Of a stretch of 64,000 nt of DNA, positions 8,570-32,040 are shown one piece after another (position 1 is the first letter of the stretch; each line of letters opens with the position of its first letter). The notes beneath the pieces were generated by a model. It was not told the DNA's origin. It saw only the letters and a list, made by a program, of their open reading frames with translations, and ran no database searches. This stretch comes from Actinomycetota bacterium (GTDB lineage Bacteria > Actinomycetota > Acidimicrobiia > Acidimicrobiales > SZUA-35): positions 162,173 through 226,172 of the forward strand of contig JBCCRO010000001.1 of the NCBI GenBank assembly GCA_039201605.1. Reading direction: 5' to 3'. The translations under genes and the position numbers were made by a program.

Positions 8570-9951
8570 CCGTGAGCGATCAGCCCGTACTCGTCTGTAT
8601 CGGCGGCGGCCCCAAGGCCCTCGCCGTGGCCGCCAAGGCCAAGGTCCTCCGTCGGCTCGGCCTTCCCGCACCCCGGGTGGTGATCATCGAGCGCCACTCG
8701 ATCGGCGCCAACTGGACGGCGGCCGGCGGTTGGACCGACGGCACCCACCGGCTCGGGACGAGCCCCGAGAAGGACCTCGGTTTCCCGTATCGCTCGGCCG
8801 AGTTCCGGGGCCACAACCGCCACGTCGATCACGCCATGCTCGCCTTCTCGTGGAACGCCTACCTGGTGGCCGCCGGTGGGCTCGGCGAGTGGGTCGACCG
8901 CGGTCGCCCGGCGCCTCGCCATCGCGAGTGGGCCAGGTACCTCCAGTGGGCGGCCGGCGAGGCCCAGCCGGAGCTGGTGATCGCCGAGGCCCGGACGGCG
9001 ACGATCGCGGGGGAGCGGTGGCGGGTCGAGGCGGTCGGCGACGATGGGCAGCCGCAGTCGATCGAGGCCGACGCCCTGCTGGTGACCGGGCCCGGATCGG
9101 CCACGAGCGAGTGGGAGTCGTCGAGCCCACGGGTGTTCGGACCGGCGCGTTTCTGGCGGGCGGTCACCGAGCGCCGCCTGCCGGTGGTCGAGCGGGCCGC
9201 CGTCATCGGCGCCGGCGAGACCACCGGGGCCATCCTCCACGAGATGTGCGGACACGACGCGCTCGGCGTGTCGATCATCGCCCCGCAGGCCAGCATCTTC
9301 ACCCGGGGCGAGGGGTACTTCGAGAATCGGGCCTTCACCGACAGCGGCCGTTGGCAGGCCCTGTCGCTGGCCCAGCGCCGGGAGCTGATCAGCCGGGCCG
9401 ATCGGGGTGTCATCTCCCAGACCGCCATGGACGAGATCCGTCTCGACAGCCGCTTCGCCCACGTCGAGGGCAAGGTCACCGGGGTGCAGGCCGAGGGCGA
9501 GGAGGTGGTCCTCGGGATCGAGACCGCCACCGGGTTCGTCAGCCGGCGCTATGACCTGGTCATCGACGCCCGCGGCACCCAGGACCTGTGGTTGCTGCGC
9601 TTGCTCGGCGATGTGGCCCGCAGTCGGCTCGAACTCGCCGTCGGTGGTGCGCCGACGCTGGAGCGGGCCCAGATGTCGATCGACCGCACGCTGGCCATCT
9701 CGGGGATGACGCCGCGGCTGTTCGTCCCCGGCCTGGCCGCCCTCCGCCAGGGCCCGGGCTTCCCCAATCTGAGCTGCCTCGGCTCGACCAGCGATCGGAT
9801 CTGCGCCGGGCTGATGCAGGCGACGGTCGACACCCGGGACCCCCACCTCGTTACGGCGGCCTCCGGCCCCACCGCCGGCCGGAGCCGGGCCGTCGAACCG
9901 GCCCCCGGGCGCCGCCCGGCCGCCACCGAACACCAACCAGGAAGCGCATGA
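8566..9951 (+). CDS. mbtG: L-lysine N6-hydroxylase / L-ornithine N5-oxygenase family flavoprotein (MbtG-like)
   Basis: Only the last 461 aa of the 6622-9951 ORF are used. The ATG at 8566 overlaps the upstream stop (ATGA). Motifs: VCIGGGPKALAVAAKA, GANWTAAGGWTDGTHRLGTSPEKDLGFPYRS, VIGAGETTGAIL, QGPGFPNLSCLG. Confidence 0.9.
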   Translation: MTVSDQPVLVCIGGGPKALAVAAKAKVLRRLGLPAPRVVIIERHSIGANWTAAGGWTDGTHRLGTSPEKDLGFPYRSAEFRGHNRHVDHAMLAFSWNAYLVAAGGLGEWVDRGRPAPRHREWARYLQWAAGEAQPELVIAEARTATIAGERWRVEAVGDDGQPQSIEADALLVTGPGSATSEWESSSPRVFGPARFWRAVTERRLPVVERAAVIGAGETTGAILHEMCGHDALGVSIIAPQASIFTRGEGYFENRAFTDSGRWQALSLAQRRELISRADRGVISQTAMDEIRLDSRFAHVEGKVTGVQAEGEEVVLGIETATGFVSRRYDLVIDARGTQDLWLLRLLGDVARSRLELAVGGAPTLERAQMSIDRTLAISGMTPRLFVPGLAALRQGPGFPNLSCLGSTSDRICAGLMQATVDTRDPHLVTAASGPTAGRSRAVEPAPGRRPAATEHQPGSA

Positions 9952-12900
9952 TGACCACCAGAGACGACATCCGGAAGCTGCTGGCCACCGAGCTGGATAT
10001 CGCCGTCGATCAGCTCGAGGACGGGGCCGACCTCTTCACCCAGGGCATCCACTCGCTGCTCCTGATGAAGACGGCCGGTTGGTTGCGTCGCTCCGGTCAC
10101 CGCATCCGCTACGCCGACCTGGTCGAGGTGCCGACGATCGACGCCTGGGTCGCCCTGCTCGACGGCGCAGCCGAGACCGGCACCGCCTCCGACGGCGGCG
10201 CCGACGGTGAGGTCGCCGCCGACGGGTCGGCACCCGAGCCCGACGAGGCCGTGATCGACCTGACCGAGACCGACGATCCCGACTTCGGGCTGGCCACGAT
10301 GCAGCACGCCCTGTGGATCGGTCGCCAGGAGGGCCAGCGCCTGGGCGGCGTGGCCGCCCACCTGTACGTCGAGTTCGACGGGGCGGGGATAGACCCCGAC
10401 CGGCTGCGCCGGGCCCTCGACCGGACGATCGCCCGTCACGACATGCTGCGGGCCGCCTTCGGCGACAACGCCACCCAACGGATCCTGGCCGAGGCACCGG
10501 ATGCGGTGTGGTCGGTGACGGACCTGCGGGACGAGCCGCCCGCCGTCGTCGCCGAGCGCCTGGAGGCGACCCGCCACCAGAAGAGCCACCAGCAGATGGC
10601 GGTCGGCCTGGGCCAGGTGATCGACGTCTCGACCACGCTGTTGCCCGACGGTGCCCACCGCATCCACATCGACGTCGACATGCTGGCCGCCGACGCCATG
10701 AGCTACCGGCGCATCCTCAACGACCTCGCCGTCTACTACAACGAGGACCGCGACGACGCGCTGGCCCCCATCGGCTGCAGCTACCGGCAGTACCTGTCGG
10801 CCCGGGCTCGGCACCGGGACCGGGCGACGGCGGAGATCGAGACCCACCGGCAGTGGTGGGCCGACCGGCTCGCCGATCTGCCCGAGATCCCCGAGCTGCC
10901 GACGATCGGTGAGGCCGAGCGGGCCGACCCCACCGCCAGCGTCCGGCTCCACCACCACCTCGGGGTGACGCAGCGCCGAGGGCTGGAGGAGGCGGCTCGG
11001 ACCCTCGGCCTGACGCCGGCGGCCCTGCTCGCCGCCCTCTTCTCCGAGGTGATCGCCACCTGGTCGGCCTCGCAGCGGTTGCTGCTCAACATCCCGCTGT
11101 TCAACCGGGAGCCGCTGTTCCCCGACGTCGAGCTGCTGGTCGGCGACTTCACCAACTCGGTCCTGGTCGACGTCGACCTGTCGCAGCCGGTGTCGGTGGC
11201 CGAGCGGGCCCGAGGGCTGCAGCGGTCGCTCCACGAGGCGACGGCTCACAGCGCCTACGAGGGCCTCGACGTGCTGCGCGACCTCGGTCGGCTGCGGGGC
11301 AACGCCGTCACCCCCTCGGTGGTGTTCACCTCCGGCCTGAATCTGGGGGAGCTGTTCTCGGCCTCGGTCACCGAGACGCTCGGACGACCGGGCTGGATCC
11401 TGTCCCAGGGCCCTCAGGTCGATCTCGACGCTCAGGTGGTCGAACTCGACGGCGGCATGTTGGTCAACTGGGACCTGCGGCGCGACGCGCTGCCGGCCGG
11501 GATGGGCGAGGCGATGTTCGCCGCATTCACCGAGCTGCTGACCGCAGCCGGGAACGGCGATCTCGACTGGAGCGGCGTGACCTCGGTGGAGCTCGACGAG
11601 GACCAGCGCCGGGGTCGCACGCTGGCCAACCGGGCCCTCGACCGGCGTCCCCCGGTGCGGAACCTGCTCGACCCGTTCTTCGAGTACGTCGGCGCCACCC
11701 CCGACGCCGTGGCCCTGGAGTGGCCGGGTGGCGGCTCGCTGTCGTACCGCCGACTGGCGGACGAGGCCCTGCGTCTCACCGCCGCACTGCGGGCGGCCGG
11801 TGTGGCGCCGGGCGACGACGTGGCCCTGCTCGTGCCCCGAGGCCCGCAGCAGGTGGTGGCCGTGCTCGGGGTCCTGGCCGCCGGAGGCGTGTACGTCCCG
11901 GTCGGCACCGACCTGCCGGTCGCCCGGCAGGCGGCGATCCTCCGACGCTCGGGCGCCTCCGTCCTGGTCACGTCGGGCGGTTCCGGTGGCGAGGAGCTGC
12001 CGAACGACGTCGTCACCGTCGATCTGATGTCGCTCGATGGGGTGGAGCCCGCCGTTCCGTACTCACCCGACCCGGAGTCGCCGGCCTACGTGCTGTTCAC
12101 CTCGGGCTCGACCGGTGAGCCGAAGGGGGTGGAGATCATCCACCAGGCGGCGGCGTCGACCATCGACGCGCTGGCCGGCCACTACGAGCTCAGCGCCGAC
12201 GATCGGGCCATCGGCCTGGCCCCGCTCGGCTTCGACATCTCCGTGCTCGACATCTTCGGAGCCCTGAATTTCGGCGGCTCGCTGGTCTGTCTCGACGAGG
12301 ACACCGCCCGCGATCCCGTGGCCTGGACCCGCCTCATCGCCGCCCACGGGGTGACGGTGGTGGGAGCGGCGCCCGGTCTCATCGCCGCCCTCGACTCGGT
12401 GAGCACCGCCGACGACATCGCCTCGATCCGGCTGATCATGACCGGCGGCGACCGGGTCGATCACGCACTGGGCCGCAGACTGCGGGAGAAGGTGCCGGCG
12501 CTGCGGTTCATCGCCCTCGGCGGCGCCACCGAGGCCGCCATCCACACCACGATCTTCGAGCTCGCCGACACCACTCCGGTCGAGTGGGCCAACCTGCCCT
12601 ACGGCTATCCGATGGACGGTGCCGGGCTACGGGTGGTCAACCAGCGGGGCGAGGACTGCCCCGAGCTGGTGCCGGGCGAGATCTGGATCGGCGGGGCCGG
12701 TGTCGTCGGCTCCGGCTACCGGGGCGACCCGGAGCGCACGGCCGAGAAGTTCCTCGACCTCGACGACGGACGCTGGTACCGGACGGGGGACATCGGGCGG
12801 TACCTGCCCGGCGGGATCCTCGACATCCTCGGACGTCGCGACCACCAGGTGAAGATCCGGGGTCACCGGGTCGAGCTCGGCGAGGTGGAGTCGGCGCTCG

Positions 12901-13475
12901 TCCGCCAGCCCGGCGTCGACGGGGCGTTGGCCACGCTGTTGGGCACCGGCGAGCCGATCCTGGGGGCGGCCGTCGCCGGTCGGGGTCTCGACCCGGAGGC
13001 CTTACGTGAGGGGTTGGCCGCTCTGCTCCCGGCCTACATGGTGCCGACGATCGTGTTGGTCACCGAGACGATGCCGACCACCCGGAACGGCAAACGCGAC
13101 CGGCGGGCGATCGAACAGGCGCTGACCGACGAGCTGGCTCAACGCCAGACGGCACCGGCCTCGCCGGCCAGCGACCTGGAGGCGGCGTTGGCCTTCGTCA
13201 TGGCCGCCATCCTGGAGCGGGACGAGGTGGGGGTCACCGCCGACTTCTTCGAGCTCGGCGGCAACTCGATACACGCCACGCTGTTCGTGGGCCGGGCCCG
13301 ATCCCTGCTGGGGGTGGGCGACCTCGCCGTCGCCGATCTGTTCGAGCTGCGGACACCGCAACGGCTGGCTCCCCGGCTCCTCGAACTCGGCGATGCGCCG
13401 ACGGTCGAGCGCATCGCCACCCTGCTGCTCGACGTCGCCCGGGAGGGCGAGACGTCGGTGCCGGAGCCGGCATGA
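9948..13475 (+). CDS. mbtB: NRPS ArCP-Cy-A-PCP (aryl carrier plus heterocyclisation module, MbtB-like, no C-terminal TE)
   Basis: The ATG at 9948 overlaps the mbtG-like stop (ATGA). The N-terminal carrier motif is FTQGIHSLLLMK. Cy motifs are FGLATMQHALWIGRQ and DVDMLAADAMS (DxxxxDxxS). The A domain is intact (LFTSGSTGEPKG, FDISVLDIFG, LGGATEAAI, YRTGDIGRY, GRRDHQVKIRGHRVELGEVE, NGKRDR). The PCP motif is FFELGGNSIHA. Confidence 0.9.
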   Translation: MMTTRDDIRKLLATELDIAVDQLEDGADLFTQGIHSLLLMKTAGWLRRSGHRIRYADLVEVPTIDAWVALLDGAAETGTASDGGADGEVAADGSAPEPDEAVIDLTETDDPDFGLATMQHALWIGRQEGQRLGGVAAHLYVEFDGAGIDPDRLRRALDRTIARHDMLRAAFGDNATQRILAEAPDAVWSVTDLRDEPPAVVAERLEATRHQKSHQQMAVGLGQVIDVSTTLLPDGAHRIHIDVDMLAADAMSYRRILNDLAVYYNEDRDDALAPIGCSYRQYLSARARHRDRATAEIETHRQWWADRLADLPEIPELPTIGEAERADPTASVRLHHHLGVTQRRGLEEAARTLGLTPAALLAALFSEVIATWSASQRLLLNIPLFNREPLFPDVELLVGDFTNSVLVDVDLSQPVSVAERARGLQRSLHEATAHSAYEGLDVLRDLGRLRGNAVTPSVVFTSGLNLGELFSASVTETLGRPGWILSQGPQVDLDAQVVELDGGMLVNWDLRRDALPAGMGEAMFAAFTELLTAAGNGDLDWSGVTSVELDEDQRRGRTLANRALDRRPPVRNLLDPFFEYVGATPDAVALEWPGGGSLSYRRLADEALRLTAALRAAGVAPGDDVALLVPRGPQQVVAVLGVLAAGGVYVPVGTDLPVARQAAILRRSGASVLVTSGGSGGEELPNDVVTVDLMSLDGVEPAVPYSPDPESPAYVLFTSGSTGEPKGVEIIHQAAASTIDALAGHYELSADDRAIGLAPLGFDISVLDIFGALNFGGSLVCLDEDTARDPVAWTRLIAAHGVTVVGAAPGLIAALDSVSTADDIASIRLIMTGGDRVDHALGRRLREKVPALRFIALGGATEAAIHTTIFELADTTPVEWANLPYGYPMDGAGLRVVNQRGEDCPELVPGEIWIGGAGVVGSGYRGDPERTAEKFLDLDDGRWYRTGDIGRYLPGGILDILGRRDHQVKIRGHRVELGEVESALVRQPGVDGALATLLGTGEPILGAAVAGRGLDPEALREGLAALLPAYMVPTIVLVTETMPTTRNGKRDRRAIEQALTDELAQRQTAPASPASDLEAALAFVMAAILERDEVGVTADFFELGGNSIHATLFVGRARSLLGVGDLAVADLFELRTPQRLAPRLLELGDAPTVERIATLLLDVAREGETSVPEPA

Positions 13476-13592: not shown

Positions 13593-16500
13593 ATGGCTGA
13601 GTCGAGCATCGCCCGACTGTCGCGTCGGCTGGGCAAGCCGGTGCCGGACTCCTCCACCGACGACGAGCAGGTCCCGGTCACGTTGGCCCAGCAGCTCGTC
13701 GTGCGCCAACACCGAGCCGGGCCGCTCGACGGGCGGGCCGTGGCCGTCGCCGCCTGGTCGATCACTCCCGCCCCGGAACCCGACGCCCTCGCTTCCGCCG
13801 TCGGCCGACTGATGACCGAGTGCGCCGTGCTGCGCACGATCCACCCCGCCGATCGCCCGGTTGTCGAGGGCCGGCTCCTCGATCCCGACGCCGTCGCGGT
13901 CGAGGACGTCCCGCCCGTGCTCGACCACATCGACGCAGTGCTGGCGTACGGGGCTCGCCCGATCGACATCGCCTCGGACGCCCCGTTCCGGGTCGCGGCC
14001 CGCACCGAGGGCGAGCACACGCTCGTGGTGCTGTCGCTCCACGCCGTGGCCGGGGACGAGCTGCTGTTGCGGGCGCTGATCAATCGGCTGGCCGTGCTCC
14101 TCGACGACCCGGGCGCGCCGCATGCCCGCTTCGACGAGGCACACCGGGCTCTGGCCGAGGCGGAGCTGGAGGCGGCCGGCGCCGCCGGCTCCGACCCCGA
14201 CCTGGCGTACTGGCTCGCCGAGCTCGACGGCCTGCCGCCCACCTCGCTCCGGCCGCTGGCCTGGCGGCCCGCCGCCGGAGCCGGTGCCGAAGCGCCGGGA
14301 GGAGCGGCAGGTCCGGGCCGGACAGGGGCCGTGGCCTCCCTCGCGCCCGACCTCGGCGGCGAGGCGGTGGACGTTGCCGCCGTCGTGTCGGCGATCGCCG
14401 CCGCCCTCTACGACGAGTGGGCCCTCGACGATCTGGTGATCGCCGTCGGCGACACCGCCACGTCCGGCGACGAGCCGGCACCCCACGTCAACCGTCTGCT
14501 GTGCCGGATCCGACCCGACGCCGGCTCCACCGCCCGCCGGCTCCGGGTCGAGGTGGAGCGGACGTTGGAGCGGGGACGGGTCCACCGGTCGACCCGCTTC
14601 GAGCAGATCATGTTGCACCCCGCCACCGGGCGGCCGCCGTCGGTCCCGCCCCAGGTGGCCACACTGGCCGCAGTCGGTCCGGATCGGATCGCCGTCGGGC
14701 GCCACCGGCTGGCCTCGGTCGGGCACCTCGACGCACTCCTCCCCGGCGTCGACCTCGGCCTCACCGTCATCGACGGCGCCGACGGCCCGGCTCTGCGGGT
14801 GACGATGGCCGATGAGGTGGCGGCACTGCACGACGTGTCGGCCTGGGCCGGGCGGATCGCAGCCCGAGCCGCGGCACTGGTGACCGCCCCGGAGAACCCG
14901 CTCGGCCAGCACCCCCTGGTGCCCGAGCCCGAGCCCGAGCCCGGTGCCGATGGCGACGAGGGCGAGGCGAGCGCCGCCGCCATCAGCCTTGACGCCGCCG
15001 ACCCCGACCCCGGTACCGCCGACCCTGGCGCAGCCGAGGGCGATGGGGAGTCGATCGTGATGTGGGGCGTGTCGACGACGCCGACCGAGGTTGCGAGCAC
15101 CACCGCAGCCCTGTTCTCGTCCTTGGAGGCCGCCGGTTGGGGGGAGGGCTCCGTCATCGCCTGTCCGGCGGCGGCCCCGTACGCACCGGCGGCGATGGGC
15201 GCCGCTCATCGGCTGGGGGCCGTGATCGCCCTGGTGCCTGACGTCGCCGAGGGAGCGCCCGATCCGCTGCCGGCCGCGCTGGGTGCCGACGTCGCCCTCA
15301 CCGCAGGCCCCTCGCTCGACCCCGCAGCCGATCTCGACGCCACCTTCGACTCCCGCCTTCGGGCCACCGGGGCCGCGATGCTCGACATCGGCGCCGCCGT
15401 CGGGGCCCCGCAGCCCACGCCCTCGTCGACGACGTCGTCCACGGTGTCGGCGGCGATCCCGCCGATCTCCGCCGTAGCGCCCGATCGGACGGCGCTGCTG
15501 GTGCCTGCCGCCGACGGTCGGACCTGGGTCGGCCATTCGTACCGGTCGGTGGCCCGGTATGTCGCCACCGAGCAGGGGCACGATCCGGTGCTGATCGTCA
15601 GCGCCGACCTGGCCGCCGGGCAGACCGCCGTCCGGGTGATCGCCGCCCTGGCGGCGCGACGGCCGCTGCGACTGGTGACCCCCACTGCGGTGACCGAGCG
15701 GGAGACGGCCCTGGTCGTCGCCGCCCACACCGGCGAGCTGGTGGTGGGGTGGCTGGCCCTCGTCGTCGTCGCCGCCTCGGCCGACGCCGCCGACCGATCG
15801 ATATCGGCTCGGCGGATCACCGTCGACGCCGCCACCATCCTCGATCGCCACGTGGTGCCGCCGCCGGCCGTACCGCCGTCGTCGGAGGTGGCGGTGAGCT
15901 TCGCCCCCGACTCGTGCGGCCCGATCGCCGTCGCCCGGCGATCGTCGATCGACGACCTCGGGGACGGCCCCGGTCTCGGCATCGGGTCGGCCGTGGCCGA
16001 CGCTGAGATCCGTGTCGCGCACCCCGACGGCCGCCCGTTGCCCGACGGCATGATCGGCCGGGTCGACGTCGGGCGACGTGACGAGGTCGACCTGCGGCCG
16101 ACCGGGTTCACCGGGTTCCGCGCCGCCGACGGCACCGTCCGTCTGGCGCCCCCGACGCCTCGCCGTCGGCTCCTCCCGAACGGCGAGCAGCTCGATCTCG
16201 ATCGCCTGGAGGAGCGCCTCACCCGCCACCCCGACGTTCTCGTCGCCACCGTGCAGGCCGATGACGACGAGGCGAAGCCGACCCTCGACGTCCACGTGGT
16301 CCCCAACCCGGGCGCCGACGGGGCGATCCTCGAGATCGTGGCCACCGACGAGCTCGGTCTCGCCCTCGGCGACCCGTCGGTGGCCCGAACGGTGACGGTC
16401 GTGGCCGAGGTGCCGCTGACCGCCGTCGGCACGCTCGACGTCGACGCCCTGCCCGACCCCGCCTCCGCCCGGCTCTCGGGCTTCGGTGGCCCGCCCCGCA

Positions 16501-16907
16501 CGCCGACCGAGGAGGCTGTCGTCGAGGCCGTTCGGGCCGCCCTGCTCACCGCCGCCGCCGGTCCCGACATCGCAGGCCTCGACCGACGGACCTCACTCGA
16601 CGAGCTGGCGGCCACCTCGACCGAGATCGGTCGGGAGGACAGCTTCTTCGGGCTCGGGGGCGACAGCCTCGCCGCCCTCCAGGTGATCACCATCCTGCAG
16701 GACGCCGGTCACCCGGCCGAGGTGGAGACGCTCTTCCTCCACCCGATGCTGTCGGCCTTCGCCCGGGAGATCGACGACGCCCGGGCCGCCGGGGTCGGCG
16801 TCGACACCGGGCCGACCGAAGCGGCTCCGCCGATGTCGGCATCGGGTCTCGACGCCGACGGACTGGCCGATCTGCTGGCCAGCCTCAACGCCGAGGCCGA
16901 CGAGTGA
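13593..16907 (+). CDS. NRPS-like protein C-A-PCP with degenerate C and A domains and an intact carrier domain
   Basis: 1104-aa ORF with GGAGG 8 nt upstream of the ATG. The C-like motif is HAVAGD (14040-14057), lacking the second His. The A-like region has VPAADGRTWVG (15501-15533) in place of the TSGSTGxPKG loop and PLTAVGTLDV with no A10 Lys. The PCP motif FFGLGGDSLAAL retains the Ser. Confidence 0.8.
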   Translation: MAESSIARLSRRLGKPVPDSSTDDEQVPVTLAQQLVVRQHRAGPLDGRAVAVAAWSITPAPEPDALASAVGRLMTECAVLRTIHPADRPVVEGRLLDPDAVAVEDVPPVLDHIDAVLAYGARPIDIASDAPFRVAARTEGEHTLVVLSLHAVAGDELLLRALINRLAVLLDDPGAPHARFDEAHRALAEAELEAAGAAGSDPDLAYWLAELDGLPPTSLRPLAWRPAAGAGAEAPGGAAGPGRTGAVASLAPDLGGEAVDVAAVVSAIAAALYDEWALDDLVIAVGDTATSGDEPAPHVNRLLCRIRPDAGSTARRLRVEVERTLERGRVHRSTRFEQIMLHPATGRPPSVPPQVATLAAVGPDRIAVGRHRLASVGHLDALLPGVDLGLTVIDGADGPALRVTMADEVAALHDVSAWAGRIAARAAALVTAPENPLGQHPLVPEPEPEPGADGDEGEASAAAISLDAADPDPGTADPGAAEGDGESIVMWGVSTTPTEVASTTAALFSSLEAAGWGEGSVIACPAAAPYAPAAMGAAHRLGAVIALVPDVAEGAPDPLPAALGADVALTAGPSLDPAADLDATFDSRLRATGAAMLDIGAAVGAPQPTPSSTTSSTVSAAIPPISAVAPDRTALLVPAADGRTWVGHSYRSVARYVATEQGHDPVLIVSADLAAGQTAVRVIAALAARRPLRLVTPTAVTERETALVVAAHTGELVVGWLALVVVAASADAADRSISARRITVDAATILDRHVVPPPAVPPSSEVAVSFAPDSCGPIAVARRSSIDDLGDGPGLGIGSAVADAEIRVAHPDGRPLPDGMIGRVDVGRRDEVDLRPTGFTGFRAADGTVRLAPPTPRRRLLPNGEQLDLDRLEERLTRHPDVLVATVQADDDEAKPTLDVHVVPNPGADGAILEIVATDELGLALGDPSVARTVTVVAEVPLTAVGTLDVDALPDPASARLSGFGGPPRTPTEEAVVEAVRAALLTAAAGPDIAGLDRRTSLDELAATSTEIGREDSFFGLGGDSLAALQVITILQDAGHPAEVETLFLHPMLSAFAREIDDARAAGVGVDTGPTEAAPPMSASGLDADGLADLLASLNAEADE

Positions 16908-18865
16908 GCGGCGCCTCGACGCCGATCGCCGGGACCGGGACCGGAACCGGGGCGGACGACGCCCGTCGGACCGGGGCTGCGTCGACCGCCCACGTGGGTG
17001 CCGCCGCTGGGGTGGGCGGGGGAGCGGACCGGTCGGCGGCCCCGCCGCCCGACCGAATCGCGCTCAAGCGTCAGGCCCAGCGGGACAAGGCGGCGGCCAG
17101 GGAACTGCTCGAACCGGTCGACGGTGCCGTCACGGCCGCCTCGGCCCTGATCGCCTTGGCCGGGGTGGCGGCGGTCGCACCCTTCGTCCTCGTGGCCGAA
17201 CTGTGCCGTCGGGCGCTCCAGGGATCGGTCGACGACGTCGAGGTGCTGGTGATCGCCGCCTTCGTCGTCCTCGTGGGTCGGGGCGTGCTCCAGCTGATCG
17301 CCTTCGCCTGGACCCACACCCTCGACGGACGGTTGCAGCTCGACCTCCGTCGTCGACTGGCGACCAAGCTGTCTCGGATCCCGCTCGGCTGGTTCAGCGA
17401 CCGACGTGCCACCGAGGTTCGACGGTTGCTGGCCGACGACGTCGGCGCCCTCCACTACCTGGTGGCCCACGCCCGCCTGGAGTTCGTCCAGGCCCTCGTC
17501 GTGCCGTTGGTCACGATCGGCTACCTCCTCATCGTCGACTGGCGCCTGACCCTGGCCCTGTTCGTACCGCTGGTGGCCTATGCCGTGGCGCTCGGCCGGA
17601 TGACCGGACCGGCGCACGACGCCCGCCTCCGGGTGTTCAACCAACGACAGCAGGTCGCCGACGACGTCGCCCAGGAGTACATCGACGGGATCGCCGAGGT
17701 CCGGGCCTTCGGCCAGACCGGGCGCTCGTCGGCGGCGTTCGAGGAGGCGGTCGACGCCTATGCCGCGGCTCTCGACGCCTGGAAGTCACCGATCACCCGG
17801 ATCCAGGCCGCGTCGCAGGTGCTGCTCCGCCCGGTCTTCCTGCTGCTGGTGGTGACGACGGCCGCGGTCGGCCTGGCATCGGTCGACCGCCTCGACCCGG
17901 CGGATCTGGTGCCCTTCCTTCTCGTCGGGGTGAGCGTGGGATCAAGCCTCCTCGGTCTGGCCTTCGGATCGGAGGCCATCCGGCAGGCGACGGCGGCCGG
18001 GGGCCGCATCGTCGGCGTCCTCGGGACCGACGAGCTCGCCACCCGGGCCGTCGATGAGGCGTCGTTCGGCGGGGCCCGGCCCGATCCGCAGGCGGCTCGG
18101 GGTGCGGTGCGCTTCATCGACGTCGCCTTCGGCCACGACGACACGCTCGTGCTCGACGGCATCGACGCCGAGCTGGCGCCCGGCACCGTCACCGCCCTCG
18201 TCGGGACCAGCGGGTCGGGGAAGACGACCCTGGCCCGGCTTCTGGCCCGGTTCGACGATGTCGACCGGGGCTCGATCACCGTCGGCGGACGCGACGTCCG
18301 CACCCTGGAACCGACCGAGCTCTACCGGCGGGTGGCGTTCGTGTTCCAGGACGTGCACCTCATCAGGGGCTCGGTGGCTGACAACCTGCGGCTGGCCCGG
18401 CCCGACGCCACGGCGGCGGAGCTGGAGTTCGCCGCCCGCACCGCCCGCATCCACGATCACGTCTCGGCGCTGCCCCGGGGCTATGAGTCCGAGATCGGGG
18501 TCGACGCCTCGTTCTCCGGGGGCGAGGCCCAGCGCCTGGCCATCGCCCGGGTGCTCCTGGCCGACGCCCCGGTGCTCGTCCTCGACGAGGCCACCGCCTT
18601 CGCCGATCCCCACTCGGAGGCGGCCGTCCAGGATGCCTTGGCCGCCCTCCTTCGGGATCGAACCACCCTGGTCATCGCCCATCGCCTCCACACGATCACC
18701 GCGGTCGACCAGATCCTCGTCCTGTCCGAGGGCCGGATCGTCGAGCGGGGCGACCACCGATCGCTGGTGGCGGCCGACGGCCACTACGCCGAGCTGTGGC
18801 GGGCCGACGAGCGGGCCCTCGTCCGGCTCGGCTCGCCGACATCGGAGCCGGAGGTGCAGCAGTGA
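16904..18865 (+). CDS. ABC transporter, fused permease-ATPase half transporter (IrtA/YbtP-type siderophore transporter subunit)
   Basis: The GTG at 16904 overlaps the upstream stop (GTGA); the start is uncertain. A Gly/Ala/Thr-rich N-terminus of about 60 aa is followed by a 6-TM-like region. NBD motifs: GTSGSGKTT, FSGGEAQRLAIAR, VLVLDEAT. Confidence 0.85.
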   Translation: MSGASTPIAGTGTGTGADDARRTGAASTAHVGAAAGVGGGADRSAAPPPDRIALKRQAQRDKAAARELLEPVDGAVTAASALIALAGVAAVAPFVLVAELCRRALQGSVDDVEVLVIAAFVVLVGRGVLQLIAFAWTHTLDGRLQLDLRRRLATKLSRIPLGWFSDRRATEVRRLLADDVGALHYLVAHARLEFVQALVVPLVTIGYLLIVDWRLTLALFVPLVAYAVALGRMTGPAHDARLRVFNQRQQVADDVAQEYIDGIAEVRAFGQTGRSSAAFEEAVDAYAAALDAWKSPITRIQAASQVLLRPVFLLLVVTTAAVGLASVDRLDPADLVPFLLVGVSVGSSLLGLAFGSEAIRQATAAGGRIVGVLGTDELATRAVDEASFGGARPDPQAARGAVRFIDVAFGHDDTLVLDGIDAELAPGTVTALVGTSGSGKTTLARLLARFDDVDRGSITVGGRDVRTLEPTELYRRVAFVFQDVHLIRGSVADNLRLARPDATAAELEFAARTARIHDHVSALPRGYESEIGVDASFSGGEAQRLAIARVLLADAPVLVLDEATAFADPHSEAAVQDALAALLRDRTTLVIAHRLHTITAVDQILVLSEGRIVERGDHRSLVAADGHYAELWRADERALVRLGSPTSEPEVQQ

Positions 18866-20670
18866 TCCTCGCCCGCACCCTGGCGCTGGTACCGGCCGAG
18901 CAACGACCGCTCCTGCCCCGCTTCGGCGCCGCCATGGTGGCCGCCGCCGTGGCCGAGGCGGCCGCCTACGTGCTGTTGGTCCCGCTGCTGCGGGCGCTGC
19001 TGGTGGGCGACAACGGCACGGCGGCGTGGTGGCTGTCGGCGATGACCGTCGCCGTCGCCGTCGCCGCCGTGGCCTCCTACGCCCAGTCGCTGCTCGGGTT
19101 GCGGATCGGGGTGGGCATGCTGCGCGGCCTGTCCCGACGGGTGGGCGAGCACCTCAATGCCCTACCCCTCGGCTGGTTCGATCGTCGCCCGACCACCTCG
19201 GTGGCCGGCGTCCTCGTGGGCGACGTGCGCGAGGTGCTCGGCGTCTTCGCCCACCTGGCCACGGTGTTCGTCGGTTCGCTGCTGGTGCCGATGGCCACTG
19301 CGGTGGGGATCCTGCTGGTCGATTGGCGTCTCGGCCTGGCCTTCGTCGTAGCGTTCCCCGTCCTGTTCGGCGTTCACCTGGCCGCCGGCCGTTCGTACCG
19401 GGCGGCCGACCGGGCCGTGCACGAGGCGGCGGACGAGGCCAACGGTCGTCTGGTCGAGTTCGCCGTGGCCCAGCCGACGTTGCGATCCTTCGGCGCCGTC
19501 GGGTCGACCACCCGCACCCTGGACGAGTCCCTCCGGGGCCTGCTCGGCGCCTCGGCCCGTCGGCTCGCCGCCGGCATCCCCGGCCTCGTCGCCTTCGCCT
19601 TCGCCGTGCAGCTCGGGTTCCTGGCCCTCGTCTACCTGTTGACGGTTCGCTTCACCGACGGGCAGCTCTCGGCGGCGTCGATGGTGGCCCTGATCGTGGT
19701 GGTCGCCCGCTTTGTCGACCCGCTCGATCAGCTCGGCCAGGTCGGCGCCACCGTCCGCTCTGCCGGCGATGCCGTCGACCGCATCGTCGACCTCCTGGCC
19801 GAGCCCGCGATCGTCGATCCCGAGGTCGCCGACGCCCCCGCCGACTGGACCCTCGAATTCGACGGCGTCGGTTTCGCCTACGACCGTGATCCGACAGCGG
19901 GCGATCCCACGGCGGGCCAACCCACCGCGGGCCAACCCCCAGCGGGCGATCCCACGGCGGGGGCGGGATCGGTGCTGCACGACGTGTCCTTCACGGCCCG
20001 GGCGGCGACGATCACGGCCATCGTGGGGCCGAGCGGTGCCGGGAAGACGACCCTGCTCCAGCTGGCGGCCCGGTTCCGCGATCCGACCAGCGGCACCATC
20101 CGGCTCGGGGGCTGCGATCTCCGCCGCCTCGATCTCGATCGGGTGATGGCGGCCATGTCACCGGTGTTCCAGGACGTGTACCTGTTCGACACCTCGATCG
20201 CCGAGAACGTGCGCTTCGGTCGGCCGGGCGCCACCGCGGCCGAGGTGGCCGAGGCCGCCCGACTGTCCGCCCTCGACGAGGTCGTCGAGCGGCTGCCCGA
20301 GGGCTGGGCGACGCGGGTGGGCGATCGCGGCTCCCGGCTCTCGGGCGGGGAACGGCAGCGGGTCGCCATCGCCCGGGCCCTGCTGAAGGACGCACCGATC
20401 GTGCTCCTCGACGAGGTGACCAGCGCCCTCGACCCCCACAACGAGGGCGTGGTGGTCGACGGCATCCGACGGCTGACGAGGGACAAGACGGTGCTGGTGG
20501 TGGCCCACAAGCTGTCGACCGTCGTCGACGCCGACCAGATCCTGGTCCTCGACGGCGGGACGATCGCCGAACGCGGTGATCACGAGGAGCTGGCCGTCGG
20601 CGGCGGGCGGTACGAGGAGTTCGTCGAGCAGCGAAGGAGCGCGGGCGGATGGCGCGTCGTCAGCGGCTGA
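18862..20670 (+). CDS. ABC transporter, fused permease-ATPase half transporter (IrtB/YbtQ-type partner)
   Basis: The GTG at 18862 overlaps the upstream stop (GTGA). A TM region is followed by an NBD with GPSGAGKTT, LSGGERQRVAIAR and IVLLDEVT. Confidence 0.85.
   Translation: MILARTLALVPAEQRPLLPRFGAAMVAAAVAEAAAYVLLVPLLRALLVGDNGTAAWWLSAMTVAVAVAAVASYAQSLLGLRIGVGMLRGLSRRVGEHLNALPLGWFDRRPTTSVAGVLVGDVREVLGVFAHLATVFVGSLLVPMATAVGILLVDWRLGLAFVVAFPVLFGVHLAAGRSYRAADRAVHEAADEANGRLVEFAVAQPTLRSFGAVGSTTRTLDESLRGLLGASARRLAAGIPGLVAFAFAVQLGFLALVYLLTVRFTDGQLSAASMVALIVVVARFVDPLDQLGQVGATVRSAGDAVDRIVDLLAEPAIVDPEVADAPADWTLEFDGVGFAYDRDPTAGDPTAGQPTAGQPPAGDPTAGAGSVLHDVSFTARAATITAIVGPSGAGKTTLLQLAARFRDPTSGTIRLGGCDLRRLDLDRVMAAMSPVFQDVYLFDTSIAENVRFGRPGATAAEVAEAARLSALDEVVERLPEGWATRVGDRGSRLSGGERQRVAIARALLKDAPIVLLDEVTSALDPHNEGVVVDGIRRLTRDKTVLVVAHKLSTVVDADQILVLDGGTIAERGDHEELAVGGGRYEEFVEQRRSAGGWRVVSG
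19888..19962 (+). repeat. five tandem 15-bp in-frame repeats encoding (D/Q)P(T/P)AG x5
   Basis: The units are gatccgacagcgggc, gatcccacggcgggc, caacccaccgcgggc, caacccccagcgggc and gatcccacggcgggg. Together they encode DPTAGDPTAGQPTAGQPPAGDPTAG, inserted between the first NBD strands (VGFAYDR ... SVLHDVSF). Confidence 0.9.
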
Positions 20671-20783: not shown

Positions 20784-21488
20784 TCAGCGCCAATAGCCCT
20801 TGGCCACCATCCGCGACTTGGGCACGCCGTTGTTGTCGCGCACGCTGCGGCCCATGGCCCGGGTCGAGAGGGCGTCGCAGGCGATCCACACGTAGGCCTC
20901 GGCGTCGCACCGCACCTCGGCCGCCGCCTCCCGCATGAGCTGGCCGTCGTTGGTCCGCTCGAGCCAGGTGACCGGGGTCGAGGCGTTGGCCCGGACGGGC
21001 AGCTCCTGGTCGGTCTCGAACTGCCACTCGAGCCAGATCCGGGTGGGTGTGTCGCCGATGGCGTCGAGCAGGGTGTTGATCGCCGGCAGCGACGCCGTGT
21101 CGCCGAAGAGCAGGAACTCGGGCGGCGTCGGGTCGGGCATCTTGAACTTCGACCCCAGCATCGTGGCCTCGATCTCGTCGCCCGGCTCGGCCCCGGTCGC
21201 CCACTGCGAGGCCGGGCCACCGTGGAGGGCGAACTCGATGTCGAAGGCGTCGTCGTCTGGCCGCTGATTGAGCAGCGTGTAGGCCCGCTGCTGCAGCTTG
21301 CCGTCGCCGCGGGGAAACCACAGGCGCACCCACTGGGTGGGATGGACGGGGTGGTCGGCGAGCAGGCCGCCGGCCTCGAAGCCGAGCCGGAGGTAGCGGT
21401 CGGTCACCTCCTGTTTCGACCGCAGCCGCAGCCGGTAATCCCGACCGCCGAAGGTCTTGGTCAGCAGGCCGTTCACACCTCGGGACAT
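20784..21488 (-). CDS. siderophore-interacting protein (FAD-binding ferric-siderophore reductase, ViuB/YqjH family)
   Basis: The start is taken at the internal ATG 21488 (MSRGVNGLL), which has GGAGAG upstream. Motifs: VTDRYLRLGF, QQRAYTLL (RxYT FAD motif), LLFGDTASLPAINTLL, and a KGYWR C-terminus. Confidence 0.85.
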   Translation of the reverse strand: MSRGVNGLLTKTFGGRDYRLRLRSKQEVTDRYLRLGFEAGGLLADHPVHPTQWVRLWFPRGDGKLQQRAYTLLNQRPDDDAFDIEFALHGGPASQWATGAEPGDEIEATMLGSKFKMPDPTPPEFLLFGDTASLPAINTLLDAIGDTPTRIWLEWQFETDQELPVRANASTPVTWLERTNDGQLMREAAAEVRCDAEAYVWIACDALSTRAMGRSVRDNNGVPKSRMVAKGYWR

Positions 21489-21630: not shown

Positions 21631-24600
21631 ATGACCGAGGCACACGCCATGCGGACCTTGGACGACATCGAGGCCGCCCTCCAGGACCGGCTGGCGGCCG
21701 AGGGGATCGAGGTCGTCGGCGCCGTGCCCGAGCGTCGGGCCCGGGATCGAGCTCCGCTGTCCCCCGGGCAACGGGGCGTCTGGACCTACCAGGAGCTGGC
21801 CCCGACGAGCGTGGTCTACAACGTCGGGCTCTGGCTCGATGTCACGGGCCCGGTCGACGTCGAGGCGATGACCGAGGCCTTCCACCGCCTGCAGCGACGG
21901 CATGAGGTGTTGCGCACCACGTATCACGTCGACGACTCGGGATCGCCCTACCAGCGGATCCACGACGAGCTTTCGCTCCCGATCGACCACGTCGGCCTCG
22001 ATCCCGGGCTCGCCCCCGACGGACGACCCGACGACCTCCTCGCCGAGCTGATCGCCGAGCCGTTCGACCTGGCGGCCACCTCGTCGCTCCGGGTGACGCT
22101 GGGTCGGATCGGGTCCGACCGGCTCGGCATCATCCTGGTGATCCACCACATCGCCTGGGACGCCGTGGCCTTCGCCGCCCTGTCCCGCGACCTCGAACGG
22201 TTCTACGACCAGGCGGTCACCGGGGTCGACGGGTCGGAGATCGCCCCGCTCACCCGCCAGGTGGCCGACTTCGCCGAGTGGGAGGTCGATCGGTTGGAGG
22301 CGGCCGACCACGGCGAGGTCGACGGCTACTGGCAGGCGATGTTCGCCGACCTCGATGCCCTCGACCTGCCCTACGATCGACGCCCCAGCCTGGCGTCGGA
22401 GTCGGCGTCCCGTCTCGACCGCGAGCTGTCGGCTCCGGCCGCCGACAATCTGCGGACGTTGGCCGAGGCGCTCGGGGCGACGCGGTTCGAGGTGTTCATG
22501 GCCGCCTACCTGATCGTGCTGCGTCGGATCACCGGGCAGGACGACGCCGTCGTCGGCACGACGGTGGTCAACCGCGAGCAGGCCGGTCAGGAACTCCTCG
22601 TCGGCAACCTCATGAACATGGTCTCGCTGCGGTATCACCCGGCGGCCGACCTCACCTTCGCCCACCTGACCGACCACGTACGTCGGGTCAACGCCGCCAC
22701 CTTCCGGCACAAGTCCCACCCCTACGAGATGGCCGCCCGCGCCGCCCGCCGGGTCAACCCCGATCTCGGGATGGGCCTGTTCGACACCGTTGCCATCTTC
22801 ATCGACGCCGAGATCGACGGCCCCTCGTTCGCCGGGTGCTCCACCCGCTGGGAGCTGATCGACACCCCGGCCGCCCTGGTACCCCTGGCCGTCGAGGGCT
22901 TCGGTCGGGGCGAGCGGGTGGACGTCCACCTCACCTACCAGGAGGATTTCTTCGACCCTGAGACCGTCGAACGGATCCACGAGTACCTCGACCAGGTGCT
23001 GGTGCACGCCTCCGCCACCACCACGGTGGACGACCTGCTCGTGCTGACCCCGGGCGACCGGGAGCGGGTGGCGTCGTGGACCAGTGGTCCCGACATGGAG
23101 ATCACGCCGCCCACCCTCGACGCCATGGCCCGGGAGATCGCCGCCCGATACCCGGATCGGGTGGCCGTGATCTTCGAGGACACCGAGCTCACCTATGCCG
23201 AGGTCGACCGACGGGTCAACCGGTGCGCCCGCCTGCTGCTCGGGGCCGGTCTCCAACCCGGTGATCTCGTCGCCGTCCACGCCGATCGCAGCGAGTGGTT
23301 GCCGATCATGGTGCTGGCGGCGGTGCGGGCCGGCGGCGTCTACGTCCCCGTCGATCCCGACCTCCCCCAGGACCGGGTCGACTTCGTGATCGACGACGCC
23401 CGGCCCGCCGCCGTGCTCCGGGGGCTCACCCCCGATCGGTCCTTCACCGAACCGTCGGTGCCGATGTTCGACTTCGCCCAGCCGGCCACCCTCGACCTGC
23501 TGGCGGCACAGGCCGACGGGCCGATCGGCGACGACGAACTGGTGCGACCGGTCCATCCCGACGACCCGGCCTATCTCGTCTACACCTCGGGTACGAGCGG
23601 GTGGCCCAAGGGCGTGGTGGTCAGCCACCGGGCGGTGGCCAACCACGTGCAATGGCTCACCAACCACTTCGGCCTGATCGAGACCGAGCGGGCCCTGCAG
23701 AAGACCCCGATCGGGTTCGACGTGTCGGTGGCCGAGATCATGGCCGCCCTCTCGTCGGGGGCCGCCGTCGTCATGGGACAGCCCGGCTGGTGGTGGATGG
23801 ACGCCCACGCCCTGGCCGACTGCATCGAGCAGTACGAGATCACCGTCCTGTCGTTCGTCCCCACCCTGCTGCGGGCCTTCCTCGACGCCGGGATCAGCGA
23901 CGAGCGACTGCGGTCGGTGCGCATCGTGGTCTGCGGTGGTGAGTCGGTGTCGCCGTGGCTGGCCGAGGAGGCGGGCAAGGCATTCGACTGCCCCGTCATC
24001 GGCCTCTACGGGCCGAGCGAGGCCACGATGGACATCACCTACGAGGACTTCAGCGACGTCCGCCATCCCTCGGAGTACCGCAGCGCCCTGATCGGAGTGC
24101 CCGAGGCCAATTCGAGCGTGTGGGTGCTGGACGAAAAGCTGCGGCCCTGCCCCCAGGGGGTCACGGGTGAGCTCTACGTGGGCGGGGTGCAACTCGCCCT
24201 CGGCTACCACCAGCGTCCCGGCCTCACGGCGGCCGCCTTCGTCGCCTGCCCGTTCCCCGAACGGCAGGGCGAGCGCATGTACCGCACCGGCGACCTGGCC
24301 CGCTGGAATCGGCGGGGCCGGTTGGAGTTCCTCGGCCGGGCCGACGAGCAGGTCAAGATCCGGGGTCACCGGGTCGAGCTGGGCGAGGTCGGCACCGTGC
24401 TGCGGCAGGTGCCGGGCGTGACCTCGGCCGCCGTCGCCGCCCTGGAGCACGCCGATAATAAGGTGCTGGTCGGGTACTACATCCCCGACCCCGCCGACGA
24501 GCGGAGCGACGACGAACAGGCGGACCTGATCTCGACCTACCTCGGCGAGCGGCTGCCGGGCTACATGGTGCCGCCGTTCCTGATCCGGGTCGGGATGCTC

Positions 24601-27771: not shown

Positions 27772-28011
27772 ATGGCTAGTTCGATCAGCACCGAATTCGA
27801 CGAGATCCTCCGGGAGGAGCTGGCGATCGACACCTCCCGGTTGACCAGGGAGTCGCACCTCATCGACGACGTCGGGCTCGACTCGGTCGCCTTCGCCGTC
27901 GGCATGGTCGCCATCGAGGACAAGCTCGGGGTGGCCCTCACCGAGAGCGAGCTGATGGAGTGCTCGACCGTCGCCGACCTCGAAGACATGGTCTTCGCCA
28001 AGCGGGGTTGA
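27772..28011 (+). CDS. mbtL: acyl carrier protein (MbtL-like)
   Basis: 79 aa with DDVGLDSVAF (DSx phosphopantetheine site). It lies directly upstream of, and overlaps, the FAAL start. Confidence 0.85.
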   Translation: MASSISTEFDEILREELAIDTSRLTRESHLIDDVGLDSVAFAVGMVAIEDKLGVALTESELMECSTVADLEDMVFAKRG

Positions 28012-29672: not shown

Positions 29673-30826
29673 CCGACACCACCGACCTCGACGCCTATCG
29701 GGCGCTGCTCGACGATCTGTTCGACGACAAGGTGCGGGCCTGGACGGCCGAAGCCGAGCAGACCGAGAAGTTCCCCCGGCCCCTGCTGGAGCACCTGGGA
29801 CGGGGCGGGGCCTTCGCCCACAAGTGGTCGGATCGGTCGATGCCCGACATCGCCAAGATGTGCGAGCTGTCCTTCGCCCTCGGTCGGCTGGGTTCGGGCG
29901 GCATCAGCGTCGGGGTGAGCCTGCACGACTCCGGCATCGCCCTGCTGCGCCGCTTCGGTCGCAGCGACGTGCTCAAGGACCTGGCCGACCGGGCCATCGC
30001 CTGCGACGCCGTGCTGTGCCTGGCCGCCTCGGAATCGAGCGGTGGGTCCGATCTGCAGCTGGTGGGCACCGAGATGCGCGAGAGCGACGACGGCTATGCG
30101 GTCACCGGCCGCAAGAAGTACGTGTCGCTGTCGCCGATCGCCGACTACATCCTCGTCGTGGCCCGCAGCGTCGACCGCGACACGACGAGCGCCCACGGCA
30201 ACGTGGCCATGGTCGCCGTGCCGACGTCGCAGGTGACCGTCCTGCCGTCCTACAACAAGGCCGCCGCCGGTCCGCTCGACACCGCGCCGGTGGAGATCGA
30301 CACCTGGGTGCCGGCCGACCACCTGATCGCCCGGGCCGGCACTGGTCTGGCCGCCGTCAGCTGGGCCCTGGCCCACGAGCGGCTCTCGATCGCGGCCCAG
30401 GTGGCGGCGTCGTGCGACAAGGTGCTCGCCATCACGGTGGCCCGCATGCACGACCGTTCCCAGTTCGGCAAGACCCTGTTCGAGCACCAGGCGCTCCGGT
30501 TGCGGGTCGCCGATCTGCAGGCCCGGGTCGACATGCTCCGGCACGCCCTGACCGGGATCGCCGTGGGGGGCCGGCTCGATCTCCGTACCGCGGCGGCGAT
30601 GAAGGTGTCGGCCGCTCGCCTCGGTGAGGAGGTGATCGGGGAGTGCATGCACATCTTCGGCGGCTCGGGCTTCCTCATCGACGAGACGCCCCTGTCACGG
30701 TGGTGGCGCGACATGAAGCTGGGCCGGGTCGGCGGCGGCACCGACGAGGTGCTGTGGGAGCTGGTGGCGGCCTCGATGGTGCCCGACGAGGACGGCTACC
30801 GCCAGTTCGCCGACGCCATCAGCTGA
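29669..30826 (+). CDS. mbtN: acyl-ACP/acyl-CoA dehydrogenase (MbtN-like)
   Basis: The ATG at 29669 overlaps the FAAL stop (ATGA). 385 aa with an ACAD fold pattern ([27 protein letters not shown]). Confidence 0.85.
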
Positions 30827-31964: not shown

Positions 31965-32040
31965 CGGGGGCGAACACCGGGCCTGCGGCTGCCGGACCCG
32001 GGCCGTGCGAGGGCGTCGGCGACGGCCCCGGTGGCGGCTG

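Follow-up and report, generated by a model that had tools for sequence, protein, structure and literature searches.

A degenerate nonribosomal peptide synthetase-like protein with a conserved carrier as the apparent orthologue of the discrete C-T didomain protein of nocobactin- and mycobactin-type siderophore clusters

What purpose might a nonribosomal peptide synthetase (NRPS)-like protein serve once its condensation (C) and adenylation (A) parts have lost catalytic residues and its carrier (T) domain has kept the active serine? The question is raised by the gene at 13593–16907 on the plus strand of a 64,000-nucleotide stretch of DNA, hereafter the window, from an Actinomycetota metagenome-assembled genome (MAG). 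A first-pass annotation had described its 1104-residue product (MEM9889357.1), here the target, as a carrier tethered to non-catalytic C and A folds, an oddity of an otherwise intact cluster which is either loaded in trans or a relic. Judged by its sequence, the product is indeed an NRPS-like protein in an advanced state of degeneration, of which the carrier can still be recognised; its layout is C′, acidic linker, A′ (a presumed fossil), T and conserved tail, where the prime marks a domain with lost active-site motifs. Homology and gene order give good support to its assignment as this MAG's orthologue of the discrete C-T didomain protein of nocobactin/mycobactin-type clusters. The best overall explanation, towards which we lean slightly, is that it is an eroded C′-A′-T member of that family whose carrier would work in trans between two synthetases.

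The open reading frame (ORF) is a single coding frame with an ATG start and a GGAGG sequence 8 nt upstream. The G+C content of third codon positions (GC3) is about 0.9 in one frame over the whole length, and codon-position G+C values of 0.80/0.56/0.90 resemble those of neighbouring genes; a 1097-residue ORF antisense to the gene shows no coding pattern by codon-position G+C. The stop codon is shared in part with the GTG at which the first ABC exporter gene begins (GTGA, 16904–16907, plus strand), and coupling of the same type joins the homologous gene to an ABC gene in a Dactylosporangium locus (L004). This overlap and the motifs quoted in the first-pass annotation all translate exactly as it had read them.

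In a Pfam scan of the target PP-binding alone scored above its cutoff (28.6 bits against 20.8). AMP-binding_C reached a sub-threshold 18.9 bits, Condensation and AMP-binding gave no match to the protein even at E ≤ 10, and Pfam and NCBIfam scans of the first 860 residues yielded nothing informative. A word-indexed homology search with the whole protein as query returned the target itself as sole match, and the same type of search with a mixed alignment (A1) returned generic NRPSs. An exhaustive HMMER search with residues 1–870 against 1.84 billion representatives produced just 22 matches at E ≤ 1e-3, all of them within residues 1–460 and all to C-T proteins or C domains; it found no homologue for residues 460–870. 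The best match is a 583-residue protein of Dactylosporangium (P0002; 3e-31, 35% identity over residues 1–440), and others include proteins from Rhodococcus (P0003, 641 residues), Nocardia cyriacigeorgica (P0004, 573 residues) and N. veterana (P0009, 568 residues). These four all possess Pfam Condensation and PP-binding domains and have in common with the target a conserved N-terminus, the carrier core and a C-terminal tail reading PMSASGLD-x3-L-x2-L. Identity of the target to P0002 is 33% over C′ and 48% over carrier plus tail; to P0004 it is 26% and 36%, respectively.

A search seeded with P0004 returned at least 90 protein clusters of 530–630 residues, nearly all from Nocardia, the remainder including Gordonia, Antrihabitans and a Stackebrandtia MAG. 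A scan of species-representative genomes added nine members (eight Nocardia and one Antrihabitans), in which C′ and T are spaced by 17–28 residues; the Dactylosporangium protein likewise lacks an A part. Discrete C-T didomains of this kind have been noted in the nocobactin-type clusters of Nocardia subfamilies II, VI, VIII and IX, where they are accompanied by a C-A-T-E-C architecture (E, epimerisation), the products keep the nocobactin core, and the didomain has been proposed as a functional substitute for the terminal C-T of NbtD (Männle et al. 2020, mSystems, PMC7413640). Far from being an isolated oddity, then, the combination of C′, carrier and tail defines a conserved family that recurs in syntenic nocobactin-type loci and is already present in the literature. 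The target shares with this family C′ and T homology, the PMSASGLD-x3-L tail and a nocobactin-type cluster context; it departs from the simple arrangement of C followed by T, with about 500–520 residues of linker and A remnant lying between the two.

Gene order agrees with the assignment. The window, the Dactylosporangium locus and a Rhodococcus locus (L005) share the succession Lys N-oxygenase, NRPS with aryl carrier (ArCP), cyclisation (Cy), A and T domains, C′-T protein, ABC pair and an NRPS of about 2020 residues. In Nocardia the operon reads C′-T, NRPS4-like, NbtF-like and C-A-T-E-C, and the C′-T stop codon coincides in part with the start of the next gene, an orthologue of the C-A-T NRPS gene at 33594–36773 in the window. 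The product of this window gene is 47–49% identical to those of the Nocardia genes immediately 3′ of C′-T. In L004 and L005 the orthologue of this C-A-T gene is adjacent to the C′-T gene and divergent from it. We considered whether the C′-T gene was derived from that adjacent minus-strand gene, and rejected the idea as BLASTP showed no relationship between them. In four Nocardia loci (L009, L011, L013 and L017) the C′-T gene is immediately preceded by an ORF of about 330 codons; it specifies a periplasmic siderophore-binding protein (PF01497) in L011 and L013, the two loci examined. A TerH-like formyltransferase gene follows the Lys N-oxygenase gene in L011.

The best-preserved part of the target is its C-terminus. 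The carrier (residues ~963–1066; 16479–16790, plus) contains the motif FFGLGGDSLAALQ, translated at 16644–16682, and here the first-pass reading of an intact carrier with its serine holds: the PF00550 score lies above the curated cutoff, a GGDS motif is present with Ser1025 (codon 16665–16667), and carrier structures in the PDB are matched. GGDS is invariant in the family, within a core R-E/A-D-T/S-F-F-x-L-G-G-D-S. The tail (16830–16886, plus) is predicted to be helical, AlphaFold2 (AF2) placing a helix at residues 1088–1098; it is found in most family members, its invariant residues being P1080, M1081, S1084, G1085, L1086, D1087, L1091 and L1094, and it may be a docking element for a downstream partner. 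Taking as near-invariant those alignment columns with at least 90% agreement among the 23 other family members, the target keeps 37 of 41 such positions in carrier and tail, compared with 40/41 in P0002 and 37/41 in P0003. In C′ it keeps 31 of 58, the two relatives 43/49 and 41/48. The carrier and tail of the target are thus as well preserved as those of its relatives, and its C′ has drifted. The carrier is best read as functional and served in trans.

At the other end the protein begins with about 24 residues (13593–13664, plus) that include a short helix, M-x-E-S-x-I-x-x-L, with M1 and S4 invariant in alignment A1; AF2 places a helix at residues 4–12 with low pLDDT. Conserved in the family as it is, this helix may also be a docking element. 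The domain that follows (residues ~25–440; 13665–14912, plus) is a condensation-fold domain, as homology searches, the AF2 model (pLDDT about 80–90 for residues 25–435) and the family profile agree. Its relation to PF00668 is indirect, residues 1–440 matching proteins which themselves match that family. The family profile detects solved C domains with an E-value of 1e-55, scoring DhbF (5u89), FscG (7kw2) and the X domain of Tcp12 (4tx2) about equally, and Foldseek matched the target model built from a multiple sequence alignment (MSA) to C-A-T modules.

The C3 motif of this domain reads HAVAGD (14040–14057, plus): it retains the first His and the Asp, and has Ala in place of the second, catalytic, His. 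BLASTP and MAFFT alignments agree with the first-pass annotation on this substitution, aligning H150 and A151 with the first and second His, respectively, of HHxxxDG. Where the target has Ala, its relatives have Pro, Gln or Arg; in all 14 family members inspected C3 conforms to H-[P/Q/R/A]-x-A-x-D-[D/E], with the first His and the Asp invariant and the catalytic His absent. Hence the dead C active site is a family trait and not a local accident. The family C′ also bears a signature of its own, ILRT[VI][YF]PxDRR[IVL]PYQ, of which the target lacks the DRR-PYQ part.

Between C′ and the carrier lies first an acidic linker rich in Pro, Asp, Glu and Gly (residues 441–486; 14913–15050, plus). It was correctly recognised at the outset as separating C-like from A-like parts; it includes PEPEPEPGADGDEGE, translated at 14922–14966, and is predicted to be disordered (pLDDT below 50 at residues 445–486). 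What follows had been called an A-like domain as a whole, a description with statistical support in its second part only. Residues 480–960 were compared by hhalign with profiles of six and of 121 A domains, and both gave a match beginning at residue ~775 or 791 and ending at 957 [Prob 92.6%, 4.6e-7 and Prob 95.2%, 2.9e-8, respectively]. This detectable remnant (residues ~775–957; 15915–16463, plus), covering the end of the A core and the A subdomain (A-sub) from A5/A6 to A10, is supported as well by the sub-threshold AMP-binding_C hit and by BLASTP matches to the A domains of neighbouring NRPSs. It has a deletion of about 28 residues between A6 and A7 in the hhalign alignments, A7 reads TGF in place of TGD (RPTGFTGF; hhalign and MAFFT), A8 is degenerate beyond recognition, and A10 reads GTLD in place of GK(L)D (within PLTAVGTLDV, 16413–16442). 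Hhalign puts T947 on the A10 Lys, which bears out the substitution of Lys by Thr; the divergence of A8 had likewise been read from the letters.

The preceding segment (residues 487–774; 15051–15914, plus) we presume to be a fossil of the N-terminal A core, A1–A4. Its fitting length, a collinear MAFFT alignment and its position between C′ and A5–A10 favour this. When residues 486–790 were used in hhalign the best local match fell, collinearly, on A1–A2 in both profiles, but it was not significant, its score being reached by 6 of 100 shuffled sequences with the small profile and by 40 of 60 with the deep one. Where A3 would sit there is VPAADGRTWVG (15501–15533), whose PAADGRT is shortened and has neither S/T-G nor Lys in the MAFFT and hhalign alignments; taking it as the former P-loop is a reasonable positional reading, based on location and the collinear alignment and not on a score that would demonstrate homology. 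The consensus motifs of A3, (T/S)SG(S/T)TGxPKG, and A7, Y(R/K)TGD, and the catalytic Lys of A10 are absent from these alignments of the stretch. The pLDDT on A′ is 45–60 with an MSA and averages 37.9 from the single sequence; the Foldseek matches of the MSA-based model to C-A-T modules are not independent evidence for an A core, because its MSA contains real modules. Lacking both a recognisable P-loop and the A10 Lys, and with residues deleted between A6 and A7, A′ is predicted to be without adenylation activity. It is best read as a fossil rather than a maintained fold. The idea of a carrier tethered to two non-catalytic folds can thus be kept for the conserved carrier and the lost catalytic residues, and should probably be given up for the A part as a fold.

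A second, smaller remnant occurs in the Rhodococcus protein. About 90 residues between its C′ and T match A8–A10 [hhalign Prob 98.2%, 3e-14] and align well with the A-sub of the target; here the A10 Lys is replaced by Asp. The target is the sole member found with a whole A fossil. As there are A remnants in these two proteins and none in at least 90 other clusters, the family would go back to a C-A-T module that first suffered inactivation of its A domain and later its deletion, and the target, P0003 and the remaining members suggest an erosion series leading from C-A-T to C′-T. The remnants also argue that the family may not simply be the split-off C2-T2 of NbtD. No NbtD-type C-A-T-C-T protein was found among the 80 genome loci inspected. 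Apart from this family, a Streptomyces protein from outside the window (P0023; Streptomyces sp. NPDC002825, 1820 residues) possesses three Condensation, three PP-binding and one AMP-binding_C domain and no AMP-binding core; it too combines several modules of which some have an eroded A domain or none.

Could the target simply be decaying, with no part in siderophore synthesis and an ORF kept open merely because stop codons are rare at 73–76% G+C? The erosion of C′ speaks for such a relic, its share of near-invariant residues comparing poorly with the 85–88% in P0002 and P0003, as do the missing Pfam Condensation and AMP-binding matches and the spurious antisense ORF of 1097 residues, which shows that long ORFs come cheaply here. 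Decay specific to this MAG also affects two neighbouring synthetases (see below). Against it, the carrier and tail, GGDS and PMSASGLD included, are as intact as in the relatives, periodicity in GC3 is uniform, the gene has a good Shine-Dalgarno sequence and is translationally coupled to that of the exporter, and the family is conserved across genera. Population data point both ways. The ORF is intact in six assemblies or haplotypes with identical or nearly identical proteins and neither frameshift nor stop; one of the contigs (GCA_039196935.1, JBCCUJ010000006.1) is 99.8% identical to the window. The gene has seven variable sites across the six assemblies, too few for a dN/dS test: three are synonymous (L159, H753 and S1082) and four are nonsynonymous, a proportion which is in favour of a relic. 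V695M, A802T and E831D fall in the A-like part and S1017N in the carrier, beside the core motif and outside it. With three of the four in A′ and none in C′ the distribution would fit a relaxation of constraint in the A-like part, bearing in mind that there are seven sites only. The nearest relatives, at 26–38% identity, offer no usable dN/dS because sites are saturated. All told we consider it unlikely that the protein is a relic.

To ask what the carrier may be doing requires a view of the cluster. By its gene content the window evidently encodes a mycobactin/nocobactin-type siderophore cluster. From left to right the predicted genes are those for an aryl-AMP ligase (509–2164, minus), a chorismate-binding salicylate synthase (2488–3810), a C-A-T-C NRPS (3851–8569, plus), a Lys/Orn N-oxygenase (8566–9951), an MbtB-like ArCP-Cy-A-T NRPS (9948–13475), the target, two ABC exporter proteins (16904–20670), a siderophore-interacting protein (SIP) reductase (~20784–21488, minus) and a C-A-T-E′-C NRPS (21631–27723, plus). 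There follow a 79-residue MbtL-like acyl carrier protein (ACP) with the motif GLDSV (27772–28011, plus), whose stop codon abuts the start of a fatty acyl-AMP ligase (FAAL)-like gene (~28011–29672), an acyl-CoA dehydrogenase (ACAD; 29672–30826), a 211-residue GCN5-related N-acetyltransferase (GNAT) of the IucB/MbtK type (~30940–31575, minus) [PF13523, 7e-41], an Sfp-type phosphopantetheinyl transferase (PPTase; 31753–32808, plus; Pfam ACPS and AASDHPPT_N), a stand-alone thioesterase (TE; 32805–33545) and the C-A-T NRPS (33594–36773, minus), in which Pfam recognises C, A and T. The ACP, FAAL, ACAD and GNAT form a complete lipidation set of the MbtK–N type, in which the small ACP and GNAT genes are readily overlooked. 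Between the window and contig JBCCUJ010000006.1 there is a 30-bp in-frame indel polymorphism at 10160–10189, in the linker after the ArCP of the MbtB-like NRPS.

Calling this cluster otherwise intact was too generous. In the NRPS encoded at 3851–8569 the first C domain reads HRIAID, the A3 P-loop GCGVGDELRG, the carrier GGTAL, without Ser, and the terminal C domain HALSAD; its homologues have GGHSL and HHIACD in Rhodococcus, and GGHPL and HHVAAD in Dactylosporangium. Carriers of this type of NRPS have consequently been lost in two lineages, given GGTAL in the window and GGHPL in L004. The E domain of the 21631–27723 product (residues ~1240–1260, about 25350–25410) reads AGGLVAD where L004 and L005 have IHHLVVDG, so that its HH is gone and epimerisation has probably been lost in this MAG.

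Counting what is left is instructive. There are five NRPS carriers that bear Ser, namely the ArCP and T of 9948–13475, the T of 21631–27723, that of the target and that of 33594–36773; four domains competent for condensation, namely Cy, HHIAWD and HHVISDG in 21631–27723, and HHIVIDG in 33594–36773; and a single stand-alone TE. The terminal C of the C-A-T-E′-C synthetase (26383–27723, plus), canonical in its HHVISDG and with no T after it in Pfam and domain scans, is the only C domain without a carrier. The carrier of the target is the only one without a working C or A domain. The two are complementary, and the simplest wiring would put the target's carrier between that terminal C and the N-terminal C of the 33594–36773 protein.

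If it is used at all, this carrier must be loaded or served in trans, since C′ has no catalytic His and A′ neither the A10 Lys nor a recognisable P-loop. Under the explanation which we favour, Ser1025 would be converted to the holo form, most likely by the PPTase encoded in the cluster. The carrier would then serve as acceptor for the partner-less terminal C of the 21631–27723 synthetase, its proposed partner, and subsequently as donor for the N-terminal C of the 33594–36773 synthetase, the proposed downstream partner. Its position would correspond to T2 of NbtD (C-A-T-C-T), which in nocobactins and mycobactins carries the hydroxy acid between two lysines (PMC7413640). A hydroxy-acid unit not being an amino acid, the A domain would have become dispensable, which would explain its decay and loss. 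C′ and the conserved helices at both termini would act as scaffold or docking elements and not as catalysts.

Loading in trans had been proposed at the outset, with the aryl-AMP ligase and the FAAL among the candidate loaders. The general proposal stands, insofar as the carrier is used; the FAAL is an unlikely loader, because it has the MbtL-like ACP of its own directly 5′ and the ACAD and MbtK-like GNAT for company. Both ligases are certainly at hand in the cluster, and the target might therefore be imagined as an acyl carrier of the FAAL/ACAD branch, equivalent to MbtL, or as a second aryl carrier for the salicyl-AMP ligase. Yet besides the dedicated ACP the MbtB-like NRPS has its own N-terminal ArCP, the motif of the target is of the peptidyl carrier type, GGDS[LI], rather than the ArCP/ACP type, G[LI]DS, and C′-T genes occur also in Nocardia loci with no FAAL seen within 10 kb. 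We regard either role as highly improbable.

The proposal that C-T didomains replace the terminal C-T of NbtD (PMC7413640) invites another view of C′, in which it would be catalytic through a non-canonical active site, forming for instance an ester bond to the hydroxy acid, a reaction proposed for the terminal C of NbtD, and a true substitute for NbtD C2-T2. Strong conservation in the family, with a signature of its own, argues for a selected function of C′, and C3 has an invariant first His and Asp. Yet the residue found in place of the catalytic His varies and is chemically inert, being mostly Pro and otherwise Ala, Gln or Arg; the target itself has lost DRR-PYQ; and the C-A-T-E-C protein ends in a canonical C that lacks a carrier. 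Furthermore a word-indexed search with P0004 gave C-T didomain proteins followed by weak generic NRPSs, apparently none of them of NbtD length, which gives no obvious sign that the family split off from NbtD. Catalysis by C′ thus seems to us distinctly unlikely.

C′ might instead be a recruitment platform, comparable to X domains or siderophore interface domains, which brings the Lys N-oxygenase or the GNAT to a carrier-bound substrate. A C-type fold that adjoins a carrier and has its HHxxxDG inactivated would suit this role, tailoring genes are present in the cluster, and the family profile gives the Tcp12 X domain about the same score as genuine C domains; the X domain has itself been viewed as what is left of an eroded extra module (PMC8949500). 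By the same comparison, however, C′ is no closer to the X domain than to the C domains of DhbF or FscG. It stands ahead of the carrier and not behind it, the annotated window genes include neither a P450 nor a TauD-type partner, the C′ surface of the target is poorly conserved relative to the family, and nothing indicates that Lys is tailored on a carrier in this pathway. Such a platform is, in our opinion, quite improbable.

The picture of an eroded family member whose carrier would work between two synthetases has its own difficulties. The link of the carrier to either partner comes from domain bookkeeping, and no polyketide synthase (PKS), whether MbtC/D or NbtB/C with their ketosynthase (KS) and AT-KR-ACP proteins, nor any other source of a hydroxy acid occurs in the 64-kb window; in the Rhodococcus locus KS and AT-KR-ACP genes come right after the thioesterase gene. 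The first 290 residues of A′ cannot be shown to derive from an A domain, being indistinguishable from shuffled sequences in hhalign. C′ of the target has lost about half of the near-invariant residues of the family and has no Pfam Condensation match, and conservation of C′ throughout the family implies that it has a function, which need not be mere docking. The carrier contains a lineage-specific insertion of about 20 residues (16545–16604) in the loop before the GGDS helix (alignment A1), where pLDDT is low at residues 992–1002. Finally, other domains have decayed in the cluster of this MAG, and in this lineage the target as a whole might be in the process of being lost.

A broader proposition concerns the family as a whole. 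C′-T proteins may constitute an obligatory non-catalytic adaptor plus carrier between synthetases, accepting from the terminal C without a carrier of the C-A-T-E-C protein and donating to the C domain that comes next, the proteins of the MAG, Rhodococcus and Nocardia representing stages in the passage from C-A-T through C′-A′-T and C′-Asub-T to C′-T. We put this forward tentatively, as a possibility that we hold to be somewhat less probable than its contrary. If true, it would constitute a natural record of an NRPS module reduced to its carrier once the substrate needs no adenylation, with the target and the Rhodococcus protein preserving intermediate stages from a full C-A-T module; for NRPS engineering it would show by natural example what a module can shed and still have a working carrier. 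The nocobactin and mycobactin pathways of Nocardia and its relatives, whose siderophores are important in iron acquisition and virulence, include a C-T protein that has gone unstudied. The C-T family and its context were already known at the level of annotation (PMC7413640), as were A domains complemented in trans and inactive C folds (PMC8949500). What is new here is the loss of the catalytic His throughout the family, in 14 members, the A fossil together with the A-sub remnant in Rhodococcus, and the hypothesis on the wiring of an orphan C to an orphan T. This is not a new type of system, and the mechanism is put forward as a hypothesis.

Among known systems, modules with a missing or inactive A domain which is complemented in trans offer one parallel. 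Syringomycin synthetase SyrE has a C-T-TE module served by SyrB1, and further cases are found in albicidin, ramoplanin and enduracidin biosynthesis (PMC8949500). As is proposed for the target, their carriers receive cargo from elsewhere. They differ in that the adjacent C domain is intact and a stand-alone A-T or A protein dedicated to the task has its gene close by, whereas in the target C is inactivated and no dedicated A-T was seen.

The X domain of glycopeptide synthetases (Tcp12, 4tx2) resembles C′ in being a C fold with a mutated HHxxxDG and without condensation activity. It is located after the last T and before the TE, where it recruits cytochrome P450s; C′ on the other hand stands before its carrier and has no P450 to recruit, and in these respects is not an X domain.

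The terminal C-T of NbtD, in nocobactin NA biosynthesis, is comparable by proposed role. Its function would be the same, namely to supply a carrier that follows the central lysine module where the hydroxy acid is joined. Unlike it, the target is a separate protein and its family shows A-domain vestiges between C and T. MbtE of Mycobacterium tuberculosis is the presumed equivalent of NbtD.

The closest counterpart is the Nocardia C-T didomain protein. At 1104 residues the target is considerably longer than C-T didomains (530–640 residues), because some 500 residues of linker and decayed A domain have been retained. Its C′ keeps 53% of the near-invariant positions against 85–99% in other members, the 20-residue loop insertion in its carrier is likewise a point of difference, and its setting is an Actinomycetota MAG whose cluster has lipid genes of the mycobactin type and, within the window, no PKS. 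Both proteins nevertheless possess a homologous C′ and carrier, the same tail and the same H-x-x-A-x-D at C3, and both are encoded in the company of a Lys N-oxygenase, an NbtF/MbtB-like NRPS, a C-A-T-E-C NRPS, a pair of ABC exporter genes and a SIP reductase.

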